Of a stretch of DNA of 64,000 nt, positions 44,515 through 47,756 are shown one piece after another. The position numbers and the translations under genes were made by a program. The DNA is from a bacterium (GTDB taxonomy: Bacteria > UBA8248). A model generated the notes under the pieces. The model was given only the letters and a program-made list of their open reading frames with translations, was not told the DNA's origin and searched no databases. Position 1 is the first letter of the stretch. Every line of letters starts with the position of its first letter. The DNA lies in NCBI GenBank assembly GCA_965219955.1, contig OZ244799.1:4160001-4224000 (forward strand), written 5' to 3'.

Positions 44515-45675
44515 GTGAGACGCGCAGAGACGGGCGCATACGAGACGACGACGTTCGGCGGCGAGGCCGTGCGCGCGTTCGTGCCCGCCAGCCTGCCGCC
44601 CAGGCCGCCGCTCGACCTGGCCGCCCTGAACGCGCCGCTCGAGCGGGCGTCGCTCTCGCTGGGCCGCCTCGACGCCCTGGCCGCGCTGCTGCCCGACCCC
44701 CACGTCTTCCTCTACACCTACGTGCGCAAGGAGGCCGTGCTCTCCTCCCAGATCGAGGGAACGCAGTCCTCGCTCTCCGACCTCCTGCTCTACGAGGTGG
44801 AGGGGGCGCCGGGCGCGCCGGTTGACGACGTGGTCGAGGTCTCGAACTACGTGGCGGCGCTCGAACACGGCCTGGCGCGGATGCGGGGGGATGGTTTCCC
44901 GCTCTCGACGCGCCTCATCTGCGAGATCCACGGCCGGCTGCTCGCGCGGGGCCGCGGCGCGGGCAAGAGCCCGGGCGAGTTCCGGCGCTCCCAGAACTGG
45001 ATCGGCGGGAGCAGGCCGGCCGCGGCGCACTTCGTGCCGCCTCCGCCCCACCGGGTCGGCGAGTGCATGTCGGACCTCGAGCGCTTCTGGCACCGGGAGG
45101 ACTTGAGGCTATCGGCCTTGCTCCGCGCGGGTCTCGCGCACGTTCAGTTCGAGACCATCCACCCGTTCCTGGACGGGAACGGGCGCGTCGGGCGGCTGCT
45201 CATCACGCTCCTGCTCTGGCGCGAGGGCGCGCTCCGCGAGCCGATGCTTTACCTGAGCCTTTTCTTCAAGCAGCGCCGGGCGGATTACTACGCGCTCCTG
45301 GACGAGGTGCGCGAGAGCGGCGACTGGGAGGCGTGGCTCCTCTTCTTCCTGGAGGGCGTGGCCGAGACTTCCGATGCGGCCGTGGCGACCGCGCACCGGG
45401 TGCTGGCGCTGTTCGATGCGGATCAGCTCCGCGCCGCGCAGACGGGCCGCGTGGCCGGCTCCGCGCTCCGCGTCTACCGTGCGCTCAAGGAGCGGCCCAT
45501 CGCCTCGCTCGCGCACGCCGCCGGGCACTCGGGCCTCTCGTTCCCCGCGGCGTCCAGCGGGATGCGCGCGCTCGAGCGCCTCGGAATCGTCCGCGAGCTC
45601 ACGGGCAAGAAGCGCAACCGCCTGTTCGGCTACGAGGCGTACCTCTCGATCCTGAACGAGGGCACGGAGGTGTAG
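44515..45675 (+). CDS. Fic family protein (N-terminal inhibitory motif, C-terminal HTH)
   Basis: SSQIEG, HPFLDGNGRVGR, ELTGKKRNRLF. Confidence 0.95.
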   Translation: MRRAETGAYETTTFGGEAVRAFVPASLPPRPPLDLAALNAPLERASLSLGRLDALAALLPDPHVFLYTYVRKEAVLSSQIEGTQSSLSDLLLYEVEGAPGAPVDDVVEVSNYVAALEHGLARMRGDGFPLSTRLICEIHGRLLARGRGAGKSPGEFRRSQNWIGGSRPAAAHFVPPPPHRVGECMSDLERFWHREDLRLSALLRAGLAHVQFETIHPFLDGNGRVGRLLITLLLWREGALREPMLYLSLFFKQRRADYYALLDEVRESGDWEAWLLFFLEGVAETSDAAVATAHRVLALFDADQLRAAQTGRVAGSALRVYRALKERPIASLAHAAGHSGLSFPAASSGMRALERLGIVRELTGKKRNRLFGYEAYLSILNEGTEV

Positions 45676-45683
45676 GTGGTAGG

Positions 45684-45711
45684 GGGGGGGGCGAAAGCCC
45701 CCCCTTTTTTT
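45684..45711 (+). terminator. Intrinsic terminator after fic
   Basis: GGGGGGGC-GAAA-GCCCCCCC-TTTTTTT. Confidence 0.8.
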
Positions 45712-45802
45712 ATGTGTAGGGGCCGCATACATGCGGCCCTTGTAGTGGGTGAAAAAACCAGGGTCGCATGTATGTCGGACATATATGTCCTATATGGACG
45801 CC

Positions 45803-46062
45803 CACGAGAATGCAAGCGGTTTTTGGGGAGGGTTCGGCGCAAAGCGGTTCGGCTCAGTCGTATATCCGGCCTCTTCGTTGCGGCGCTTTACTCTGGCCGC
45901 GGGCCCGTATGGAGATAGGTGGACCGGGTCCAAATCGACCTGGTGAGCTCGGTGGCTCTGGACATATATCTGGTTTTCCCGGTCCCGTCTCGATGACCGT
46001 TTGCCCTTACCCTTCCTCCGGCCTGCTCACATTCCTCCCGGCTCTATCCGTGCGCCCGCCGC
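45803..46062 (-). ncRNA. Putative bridge/seek RNA of the IS1111-type element (boundaries approximate)
   Basis: RNA-sense ATATATGTCC-hairpin-AGGTCGA matches the two insertion flanks; GGCCGGATATACG motif; located in the right-end non-coding region. Confidence 0.7.
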
Positions 46063-47088
46063 TCAGGCGAGGGGCGCTGGCTCCCTGTAGACATCCTTGT
46101 TCCGCATCAGCGCCCACGCGATGCGCGCCATCCGGTTCGCCAGCGCCACCGCCACCACCTTCCTCGGCTTGCGCGCCAGCATCCGCGCCAGCCACGGACA
46201 CGGCGGCTTCCGGCGACGCCCCGCCCAGCGTATCTCCGACATCGCGCCCGATATCAACAGACGCCTCACGTCGCGCTGGCCCATCTTCGATATTCCCCCC
46301 AGGCGGGGCTTGCCCCCCGTGGAGTGCTGCCGGGGAACCAGACCCAGCCAGGCCGAGAAGTCGCGGCCCCGACGGAAGCGCTCCACCGGCGGCGCGAACG
46401 CCCGGATCGCCGACGCCGTAATCGGGCCGACACCCGGGATGCTCATCAGCCGCCGCGCCTCCTCGTCCGCGTATGCGCTCGCCCGGAGCCGTCCGGTCAA
46501 CTCCCGGACCTTCGCATCGAGGCCGTCAATCTGGGCGAGCAGAATCCCGCCCAACTCGCGGACCTCCTCGGGCAGGCCCGATTCCGCTCCCCGAACCGCC
46601 GCCGCCAGCCGTGTGAGGCCCACGGGCCCTTGCCGCTCGACGACCCCGAACTCCGCCAGGTGGCTGCGCAGCGCGTTGCGCGCCTGCGTGCGCTGACCCA
46701 CCAGCAAATCCCGCGTGCGGTACTCCATCCCACACCCCTGCTGCGCTTCGCTCTTCACCGCCACGAAGCGCATCGTCGCCCGCGTGGCCGCCTCGCATAT
46801 CGCCTCCGCATCCGCCGCGTCGTTCTTGTGGCGCTTCACGTAGGGCTTCACGTAGACCGGCGGCATGAGCCGAACCTCATGGCCGAGCTTGCCGACCTCG
46901 CGCCCCCAGTAGTGCGCGCTCGCGCACGCCTCCATCGCCACCACGCATCGAGGCTGCGACGACAGAAACTCCAGCACCTTCGCGCGCGTCAGCTTCTTGC
47001 GGAACGCCACCCGCCCGTCCGCACCCGCGCCGTGGAGTTGAAAACTGTGTTTCGCCAAGTCGATGCCGATCATGTAGACTCCTTCCAT
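46063..47088 (-). CDS. IS110 family transposase/recombinase (DEDD)
   Basis: IGIDLAK, MEAC, KNDAADAEAI, SIPGVGPITA, WLGLVPRQHSTGG, VALANRMARIAW; AAGGAG RBS. Confidence 0.96.
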   Translation of the reverse strand: MEGVYMIGIDLAKHSFQLHGAGADGRVAFRKKLTRAKVLEFLSSQPRCVVAMEACASAHYWGREVGKLGHEVRLMPPVYVKPYVKRHKNDAADAEAICEAATRATMRFVAVKSEAQQGCGMEYRTRDLLVGQRTQARNALRSHLAEFGVVERQGPVGLTRLAAAVRGAESGLPEEVRELGGILLAQIDGLDAKVRELTGRLRASAYADEEARRLMSIPGVGPITASAIRAFAPPVERFRRGRDFSAWLGLVPRQHSTGGKPRLGGISKMGQRDVRRLLISGAMSEIRWAGRRRKPPCPWLARMLARKPRKVVAVALANRMARIAWALMRNKDVYREPAPLA

Positions 47089-47202
47089 GGTCGTCTCCTT
47101 CCGGGCGGTGTGTGACGTCGTCTCGCCACATTCTAATCCGCCGGAAGGAGGCGTCCACCCCATCGACCTACACTCCCTTCGGCAAGACGGATTCCCATTG
47201 CC

Positions 47203-47756
47203 CTCATCCCGAGTAGGCGCGCTCGCGCGCCGTATCGAGGGAGCGCCCTTCGATACGCCGCCTCCGGCGGCTACTCAGGGTGAGGTCGATACGGCGGCCG
47301 ATGAGGGAGCAAGATAAACTCCTCCCTTGAGGGGGAAATCCCATAAGGGCAACCCCCCCTACCCCCCCTTGTCAGGGGTCAAACGCGAGTGATGAACGAG
47401 CGTTTGCATGAGCCATTGACGAGAAACACATCGTCTTGCAAAACCTCCCTCTTCGGTCGGTTTTGACCCCTGTCAAGGGGGGGTAGGGGGGGTTGTTTTT
47501 CCTGGCGAGAGCCTGCGCCGCCGCCTTTTGGGATTATCTATCCCGTCATTCCGTTATATGGCGGAGACAGAAAAACCGGGAGGATACACGGTCAGACATA
47601 TATGTCTGACCCCTACGTAAAACGTGATGGGTTTTGTAGGGACAGGCCTCCGTGCCTGTCCTGACGAAGGACAACCACGAAGAGCAGGACAGGCACGGAG
47701 GCCTGTCCCTACGATGAACAGTTCGGTGATCGGGATCCCCTCCCTCCTCAAGGGGG
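47203..47756. repeat. Intergenic REP-like cluster including GTCAGACATATATGTCTGAC palindrome (47591-47610) and GTAG-REP doublet (47636-47712)
   Basis: Inverted arms visible directly; shared with the other clusters. Confidence 0.8.

Follow-up and report, generated by a model that had tools for sequence, protein, structure and literature searches.

An IS1111-group insertion sequence with predicted target and donor guides and its REP-like insertion sites in a UBA8248 bacterium

We analyzed a stretch of 64,000 nucleotides (hereafter the window) from a bacterium of the UBA8248 lineage (assembly GCA_965219955.1, contig OZ244799.1, positions 4,160,001 to 4,224,000 of the forward strand) and describe here an insertion sequence (IS) of the IS1111 group, which occupies window positions 45791-47165 on the minus strand and measures 1,375 bp when one core is counted. 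Its transposase gene (46063-47088, minus strand) codes for 341 amino acids. Non-coding sequence extends over 272 nt on the 3' side of the gene (45791-46062) compared to 75 nt on the 5' side (47089-47163), an arrangement that fits the IS1111 layout, and the longer 3' region contains a conserved structured RNA with predicted guides for the target and for the ends of the element. The target is a palindrome that resembles repetitive extragenic palindromes (REPs). The initial annotation of this DNA, made from the letters alone, had proposed an RNA-guided IS1111 recombinase with guides aimed at a REP family of this genome; protein signatures, RNA fold, insertion sites and covariation all support this central proposal.

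A whole-genome copy search (one contig, 4,283,615 bp) identified eight copies of the element at 97-100% identity, designated c0 (the window copy) to c7, together with a ninth element at 78% identity, short fragments and many matches to unrelated flanking repeats. For comparison, 80 homologous loci with 61-80% protein identity were fetched from other genomes of several phyla, which together with the nine elements of this genome gave a total of 89. Eight were dropped for lack of a recognisable end pair (72 of the 80 fetched loci had one), and 12 were set aside because their right end was non-standard or uncertain. When the junctions were lined up in the orientation of the element, the order was flank, CG, ATGGGG, TGGACGCC at the left end and GGCGTCCA, TATA, CG, flank at the right end. 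The subterminal inverted repeats (IRs) are 8 bp long, within the range of 7-17 bp used for IS1111 elements, and lie 6 nt inside the left end (TGGACGCC) and 4 nt inside the right end (GGCGTCCA). In the window, the right end (45791-45802, minus strand) consists of the TATA extension (45791-45794) and the IR, which reads TGGACGCC on the plus strand (45795-45802), and the left end (47150-47163, minus strand) consists of the IR (plus strand GGCGTCCA, 47150-47157) and the 6-nt extension (CCCCAT on the plus strand, equivalent to ATGGGG; 47158-47163). Homologues keep this end layout, and the two IRs covary among them (TGGATGC with GCATCCA).

Comparison of the eight copies and 69 homologous elements identified the core as CG and the hexamer formed at the predicted circle junction as TACGAT. 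The left-junction core (47164-47165 in the window) is CG in all eight copies, and the right-junction core is CG in six (c1, c2, c4, c5, c6 and c7); in c0 and c3 it is a single base, represented in the window by a remnant at 45790 that reads only C on the plus strand. In homologues, the left- and right-end cores match each other and are either CG or TG. Misled by the one-base loss in c0, the initial annotation had read the core as TC or C and the -10 hexamer of the junction as TAGGAT, and both readings have to be replaced. Insertion was found to be specific for site and orientation, with all eight copies cut at CG and with no duplication besides the shared core.

The transposase belongs to the IS1111 group. 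An open frame of 366 codons spans 46063-47163 on the minus strand. An ATG at 47088, preceded by GGAGA, is common to all copies, and the Met of a downstream start (MIGIDL) is absent from the other seven, so the shared ATG was taken as the start (MEGVY...), giving the protein of 341 amino acids, which falls within the 330-350 residues that characterize IS1111 transposases. The protein matched PF01548 (E value 5.3e-14), PF02371 (2e-23) and the NCBIfam model NF033542, IS110 family RNA-guided transposase, at 310.6 bits compared to a cut-off of 140. It was 40% identical over residues 1-334 (98% of the query) to proteins whose genes carry the annotation IS5075 or IS4321 family transposase, and its match to the solved IS621 and ISCro4 proteins was confined to the C-terminal third (E value 2.3e-09 for IS621). 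Conserved acidic residues and the motif GL-P----S(t)G are marks of IS1111 transposases (PMC11187229). Among 57 distinct homologues, D10, E53, D90 and D93 lie in near-invariant columns, and we assign them by position to the putative catalytic DEDD set; GLVPRQHSTGG, the TG form of the motif, is also near-invariant.

Relatives of the transposase at 61-80% identity occur in genomes labelled Alphaproteobacteria, Vicinamibacterales, Longimicrobiales, Nitrospinota, Binatia and Chloroflexota, suggesting that the family has spread widely by horizontal transfer. Within the genus of the host, a relative at 76-98% identity was present in 11 of the 22 other genomes searched.

When the flanks of c0, c1 and c2 are rejoined with CG, they give GTAGGT-CG-GACATATATGTCCGAC in the orientation of the element, with the insertion at the CG in one arm of a palindrome. 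The rejoined target is a perfect 20-bp palindrome, GTCGGACATATATGTCCGAC, followed by CTAC (a GTAG head). In the window, the half beside the right end is GTCGGACATATATGTC (45774-45789), the left 16 bp of the palindrome, a flank which is the same at c1-c3, and the half beside the left end (47166-47171) comprises AC, the end of the palindrome, and CTAC, the GTAG head on the other strand. The flanking strings GTCGGACATATATGTCC (45774-45790) and GACCTAC (47165-47171), from which the initial annotation had reconstructed the target, are present as described. One uninterrupted GTCGGACATATATGTCCGAC was found elsewhere in the genome, at 450383, and a contig of a public sequencing run (X20) goes straight from ...ATATATGTCC to GACCTACAC, a read-through of an empty site.

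In the whole genome, 66 palindromes fit the pattern G[GT]C[AG]GAC-N6-GTC[CT]G[AC]C. GTAG or CTAC is located on exactly one side of 54 of them, and several form inverted pairs at a spacing of 60-140 bp. No REP-associated Y1 transposase (RAYT, PF01797) was detected in the genome (one contig, 94.25% complete), the same search being positive in 6 of 14 control genomes, and for this reason we regard the repeats as REP-like by form only. Four copies (c0-c3) are inserted in GTCGGAC...GTCCGAC, with c3 occupying the opposite arm of this first palindrome, and three (c5, c6 and c7) are inserted at the corresponding CG in a sister palindrome, GGCGGAC-CTGCGT-GTCCGCC (REP2; GGCGGAC...GTCCGCC). The only copy of the eight outside a REP-like palindrome is c4 (genome positions 1959372-1960746), which interrupts a gene for a cobW-family GTPase at a point between the nucleotide-binding domain (PF02492, E value 1.1e-61) and CobW_C (PF07683, 8.4e-27). 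That other copies might lie at unrelated sites had been foreseen as an objection to guided insertion; the remaining copies are found in the same REP or in the sister REP, with the guide letters changed accordingly.

The sibling palindrome reported by the initial annotation, GTCAGACATATATGTCTGAC-CC-CTAC, does start at 47591 and is one of 12 copies of GTCAGACATATATGTCTGAC in the genome. These 12 palindromes (GTCAGAC...GTCTGAC) have CA/TG at the core position instead of CG, and none of them is occupied; of the five palindromes of the CG form, four are occupied and one is free.

The structured core of the RNA, of the bridge/seek type, has a length of about 150 nt (45846-45998, minus strand) and lies downstream of the gene in the right end, not upstream as in elements of the IS621 type. 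It is closed by helix P0 (GGU 45998-45996 with ACC 45848-45846). A target-binding stem-loop (45921-45985, minus strand) is built from helix P1 (GGACCGGG, 45985-45978, with CCCGGUCC, 45928-45921), a short helix P1b (CC/GG), an internal loop whose 5' side is AGAUAUAUGUCCA and 3' side ACCAGGUCGAUUU, and the apical hairpin P2 (GAGC 45958-45955 with GCUC 45948-45945, minus strand). A further hairpin, P3/P4 (GGCC/GGCC and GCGGC/GCCGC; 45868-45905, minus strand), lies between the two strands that carry the predicted donor guides. This consensus fold, with 26 pairs in six helices, was derived from an alignment of 47 homologous non-coding regions (of 53 distinct ones, six being omitted as near-duplicates of kept rows). 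Standard pairs occupied 98.6% of cells, compared to 22-47% when the partners were slid by 1-3 columns, and changes on both sides were observed in 12 of the 26 pairs, including 6 of 8 in P1, 2 of 4 in P2 and 2 of 5 in P4, with P3 nearly invariant; none of 500 shuffles reached the observed covariation score. G-U pairs are frequent on the minus strand, which fits an RNA of the same sense as the gene. Both target guides are unpaired in the consensus fold and are located in the internal loop between P1b and P2 rather than in stems, as anticipated by the initial annotation.

Two predicted target guides face each other in this loop. The first, designated T (AUAUAUGUCC, 45960-45969, minus strand), is the complement of the top-strand sequence G-GACATATAT, which lies right of the insertion point, and the second, designated B (AGGUCGA, 45935-45941, minus strand), is identical to the top strand AGGT-CG-A, i.e., the left target, the core and the first base of the element. 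T precedes B in the 5' to 3' direction of the RNA, and the two overlap at the core G. This is the order published for seekRNAs of the IS1111 type, which are encoded downstream of the gene and in which the match to the top strand precedes that to the bottom strand (PMC11187229); bridge RNAs have been predicted for 93% of IS1111 elements, at the right end (PMC11208160). The minus-strand strings on which the guides had initially been proposed are all present, namely ATATATGTCC (45969-45960), the GAGC/GCTC hairpin (45958-45945), AGGTCGA (45941-45935) and ATATACGA (45865-45858); CTCCAT is present as well, at 45914-45909, one base away from the position first given. Of the three occurrences of the 10-mer ATATATGTCC in the window, two belong to the flank palindrome and one to the non-coding region; shuffles of the window lead to an expectation of 0.00.

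The alignment is conserved except for two blocks, both of which coincide exactly with the proposed guides. We parsed 67 loci, comparing each loop with its own flanks (two elements could not be parsed for guides), and carried out a permutation test on 43 distinct guide pairs, from which c7 and two loci with short flanks were omitted. The mean longest exact match of guide T was 6.35 with its own flank compared to 3.19 with non-cognate flanks (1,770 pairings), and the corresponding values for guide B were 7.40 and 3.35; in neither case did any of 5,000 permutations reach the observed value. Covariation between guide and target, which the initial annotation had put forward as a check, is thus found far beyond chance. 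Congeneric elements at 83-86% identity provide a further illustration, with guides such as UAUAUGCG or UACAUGCG and insertion sites that belong to a third palindrome type, GGGTCGCATATATGCGACCC.

Guide changes could also be followed among the copies in this genome, which differ at 36 of 1,377 aligned columns. No differences over these columns separate c1, c2 and c4. Compared to these three, c5 differs only in three adjacent bases of guide T (AUAUAUGUCC to AUGCGUGUCC) and is inserted in the sister palindrome that matches those bases. The allele AUGCGUGUCC, present in c3, c5, c6 and c7, matches the REP2 sequence GGACACGCA. c3 is the same as c5 apart from the core base, and c6 differs from c5 in two bases of guide B (AGGUCGA to AGGGCGA) and one base of P1, with a left flank (...TTGGG-CG) that fits the new B guide. 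Private differences are most numerous in c0 (23, the most diverged copy), followed by c7 (about 10), and c5 can be described as a mosaic that resembles c1 in its 5' part and c7 in its 3' part. We considered templating of the guide from the target repeat as a source of the three-base change and found it unlikely, as homology exists on one side only (5 bases). Once present, an allele can be spread by simple recombination between copies. A search of 40 relatives for further copies yielded only relatives at 76-86% identity and two contig-end fragments at 96-98%, both in one genome (G011).

Two putative donor guides lie on either side of hairpin P3/P4. One, of the left-donor type (AUAUACGA, 45858-45865, minus strand), repeats the sequence formed by the right-end extension, core and first base of the left end (ATATA-CG-A). 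Its 4 nt of extension agree with those at the right end of the same element in 17 of 18 distinct combinations (eight different 4-mers, with cores CG and TG). The other, CUCCAU (45909-45914, minus strand), can base-pair with ATGGGG, the left-end extension, when one G-U pair is allowed. CTCCAT faces ATGGAG, a perfect match, in 14 loci and ATGGGG in 27, and one compensatory case was found (CGCCAT with ATGGCG). Covariation with flanks or ends is observed for three of the four guides, alongside the family membership, ends, core and RNA fold described above; judged from these alignments, support for a CUCCAU guide is weaker than for the other three.

Joining of the two ends in a circle would bring together a candidate -35 hexamer, TTGCAT (45810-45815, minus strand), a spacer of 17 nt and TA-CG-AT across the predicted junction. 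Among 47 distinct end combinations, the hexamer at the -35 spacing begins with TTG in 39, and in the junction hexamer, position 2 is A in all 47 and position 6 is T in 46. From this pattern, TTGCAT-17 nt-TACGAT is predicted to be a promoter that is completed only in the circle. Junction promoters are known in this family, and the conserved -35/-10 geometry fits those published (PMC12288879; PMC11187229). A promoter-like site native to the left end (TGGACG, 16 nt, TAGAAT) was also considered and rejected: one such site is present compared to 0.3 expected, and its -10 is absent, by eye, from the 78% relative.

In c7, the final 73 nt of the element are duplicated in tandem (genome positions 4139966-4140041). 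The duplication spans the sequence from the internal ATATA-CG of the donor guide to the ATATA-CG of the true end and is followed by a palindrome half that fits the guide. This is the product expected from recombination between the true end and the guide-coding site and may have arisen in this way, although slippage between the two 7-bp repeats gives the same product. Repeated right-end pieces past the end were also seen in four homologues (L082, L105, L039 and L076). The c7 scar recalls ISPpu9, in which internal end-like boxes lead to alternative circles (PMC12288879), and the half-match recombination reported for IS621, for which the donor half of the RNA is enough (10.64898/2026.08.31.748434); compared to these systems, the case here consists of a genomic scar alone, and slippage explains it equally well.

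Behaviour of the donor-guide DNA as an end-like site in c7 is one of two points that might be raised in favour of matches acting as DNA, i.e., as protein-binding sites or target mimics without any guide RNA; the other is that covariation between guides and flanks is by itself silent on whether RNA or DNA does the pairing. However, compensatory changes are found in the helices that separate the guides, as are many G-U pairs on the sense strand, and a G-U pair corresponds to an A-C mismatch on the other strand and is meaningless in duplex DNA. In addition, the transposase of relatives co-purifies with RNA from this region (PMC11187229). We consider a purely DNA-based role highly improbable.

Taking these data together, we are confident that the locus represents an RNA-guided IS of the IS1111 group with target and donor guides in a 3' RNA and a REP-like target, probably moving through a circle with a junction promoter and strand exchange at CG. 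By analogy with published relatives, the RNA would be made and bound by the transposase, and circle formation, promoter activity and recombination chemistry would follow the course described for them. In the proposed mechanism, the element would leave as a circle with the junction ...CCATATA-CG-ATGGGG..., which would assemble the promoter TTGCAT, 17 nt, TACGAT for expression of both the transposase gene and the RNA. Right of the core, guide T (AUAUAUGUCC) would pair with the top strand; AGGUCGA would pair with the bottom strand over a stretch that reaches from the left side across the core. The donor guide AUAUACGA would read the right end and the core, and CUCCAU the left end. The complex of transposase and RNA could then pair the circle junction and the REP target together, and strand exchange at CG would leave one CG on each side. 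Elements of this kind, i.e., REP-targeting RNA-guided ISs of the IS1111 group, are already known.

Several observations count against this interpretation. No Rfam family matched the non-coding region, and folds of this sequence by itself scored no better than shuffles (z -1.5 and -1.1), which leaves the alignment as the basis of the fold. Eight of 43 T guides and four of 43 B guides fit their own flank no better than non-cognate ones (longest match of 4 or less), some of these poor matches being due to duplicated tails or diverged sites. The right-end core is unlike the core in the guide in 4 of the 18 combinations (six loci, including c0). The second donor guide is nearly invariant, CACCAT is mismatched to ATGGAG in nine loci, and the core is left uncovered by this guide. 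No circle junction was seen among the assembled contigs of public runs. Contigs of RNA libraries (three runs from two studies) cover 45760-46148 at a likeness of at least 92%, and two of them extend from about 30 nt past the right end to just inside the gene; they are compatible with a transcript of the non-coding region and provide a weak hint of it, but give neither strand nor RNA ends and may stem from DNA. These data consist of assembled contigs, and poor RNA-library cover of most of the transposase gene carries no weight. A single joint from 45822 to 45896 in run X1 (side 22) is too weak to interpret. Finally, two copies, c3 and c4, carry a T allele that does not fit their own site, and the right-end core of c0 is without one base.

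The discordant copies deserve closer consideration. c3 has the second T allele and lies in the first palindrome; c4 has the first T allele, and its site in the cobW-family gene, ...TGCGTGT-CG-ACCT, shows an 8-base match to the T guide of the second allele and a 7-base match to the common B guide. This discordance suggests that either RNA acted in trans or gene conversion followed insertion. For the latter, i.e., conversion or recombination between copies after insertion in place of guiding by RNA in trans, several points can be listed. c1-c6 are the same outside the guides, so that conversion of a short tract would be invisible elsewhere in the element; c5 can be read as the mosaic noted above; and 1.4 kb of identity between copies is ample for homologous recombination. 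On the other hand, protein and RNA supplied in trans move a marked element experimentally (PMC11187229), and the donor ends and donor guides are identical in all copies, leaving nothing to prevent action in trans. The site of c4 also fits the other T allele in near register, which argues that the RNA of that allele chose the site. We place conversion after insertion just short of an even chance. A different view of the same data is that the eight copies form a guide-sharing community, in which the RNA of any copy could direct the DNA of any copy because ends and donor guides are shared, and the RNA that happens to be loaded picks the site. We put this forward tentatively, leaning somewhat towards doubt.

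With regard to c0, its right junction reads TATA-G-GACAT compared to TATA-CG-GACAT, and a DNA contig of run X1 reproduces this right-end allele exactly across 45720-45820. Because the right-end core is one base and not CG, c0 may be a poor excision substrate with a gene and RNA that look intact; the initial description of an intact recombinase holds for the open reading frame (ORF) and the RNA but not for the right-end core, reduced from CG to one base. One might go further and propose that the family works and c0 is stranded, supplying protein and RNA without itself being excised. The confirmed one-base core and the position of c0 as the most diverged copy (its 23 private differences set it apart from c1, c2 and c4) agree with this proposal, as does the finding that recombination in relatives centres on matching cores (PMC11208160). 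However, the ORF of c0 is open, all near-invariant residues are kept, its four guides are the same as those of c1, and at three of the seven positions where c0 departs from the other copies it has the residue that is commonest among homologues. Moreover, the same base is missing in c3, which belongs to the young near-identical group; such a loss may therefore occur in the course of recombination and is not necessarily a sign of decay. Excision of IS621 has also been reported to rely on donor-arm recognition only (preprint 10.64898/2026.08.31.748434). Stranding of c0 appears possible but rather doubtful. c0 and c3 (genome positions 694059-695433) are not closest relatives and yet have lost the same right-core base. 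Origin of the one-base core from a variant target was rejected, as neither GTGGACATATAT nor a longer form was found in the genome.

A covariance model built from the alignment (R1) had 12 matches in this genome, nine beside transposase genes of the family, one beside a 41%-identical relative and two orphans. The model may serve annotation, as it picks up both linked and orphan RNA copies. The relative (genome positions 2634540-2635995) is an IS1111-type element with a TAG inside the gene match, subterminal IRs of 15 bp and the core AA; its RNA has the same four-guide layout, and its guides match their own flanks (ATGGCATC and AGAGGAAATG). The orphan RNA copies, both full-length matches to the model without a transposase gene, are located at 1860698-1860874 and 3812418-3812596. 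One of them retains about 100 nt of the 3' end of a transposase gene and has guides that still fit the flank, and the other begins 18 nt past a tRNA-like sequence with a long variable arm (by eye). They look like decayed elements.

Just upstream of the IS in the window, a gene of the Fic/DOC family (44515-45675, plus strand; Fic_N, E value 2.4e-26; Fic, 4.4e-19) ends in a strong terminator-like hairpin and T run (45681-45709), after which the repeat cluster and the IS follow. Both flanks of the IS consist of further dispersed repeats. Sequence matching the segment 45715-45774, in which GGGCCGCATACATGCGGCCC lies, is found at about 15 further genomic sites; 47201-47250 recurs at 20 or more other sites, and its summed contig depth in run X1 is very high. 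At 47635-47713, a long near-perfect hairpin (GTAGGGACAGGCCTCCGTGCCTGTCC...) belongs to a repeat family with a GTAG head that is also found beside c7. Rfam matches with low E values were microRNA models on this hairpin, outside the IS, and all were below gathering scores.

Among the closest published counterparts by description is ISPa11 of Pseudomonas aeruginosa, an IS1111-family element which likewise occupies a fixed position in a REP and has its RNA downstream with the same guide order (PMC11187229). Its RNA co-purifies with the transposase (PMC11187229), and a bridge RNA with target and donor loops has been predicted for it (PMC11208160). Compared by description, the element studied here differs in host, target and guides, and its guide allele varies among otherwise identical copies. 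IS621 of Escherichia coli, from the IS110 group, shares with it a DEDD recombinase, REP targets and a dinucleotide core common to donor and target, as well as a two-loop RNA that reads both strands, a circular intermediate and a junction promoter, these last three being predictions in our case (PMC11208160). However, the RNA of IS621 lies upstream in the left end and its core is CT, whereas the RNA here is downstream and the core is CG; here, the order of target guides is reversed, the 8-bp subterminal repeats are long, and the likeness of the proteins is limited to the C-terminus. The element would work like IS621 but belongs to the sister group.

IS4321 and IS5075 show full-length protein likeness (40% over 98%) and subterminal IRs, as found here. 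Judging by the title of a 2003 paper by Partridge and Hall, they reportedly belong to the IS1111 family and insert site-specifically into a repeated palindrome-like target. Their targets are terminal repeats of Tn21-type transposons on enterobacterial plasmids, whereas those in this genome are chromosomal REP-like repeats. Replacement of the target-matching bases with retention of the RNA stems, and with targets that differ accordingly, has been described for ISEc11 and ISXne4 as well; these are separate elements with transposases 72% identical (PMC11187229), whereas the redirected copies reported here are otherwise identical and reside on one chromosome.

RNA-guided recombinases of this family are in development as genome-writing tools, and natural cases show how their specificity evolves. 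The copies described here constitute a clean natural experiment, being alike over 1.4 kb, three or five guide bases apart and inserted in different repeat subfamilies. What they add to known elements is a series of guide alleles, core-variant repeats left untouched, two discordant copies and a duplicated tail, the last being a hint that guide-coding DNA is usable as an element end. They also offer a ready set of cognate and non-cognate guide-target pairs for an IS1111 enzyme, from a group less studied than IS621, and a testable case for trans action among copies. If guides are indeed shared, the genome would possess a common repertoire of two T and two B alleles, which would account for the sites of c3 and c4, and a three-base change in a single copy would open a new REP subfamily to all copies.

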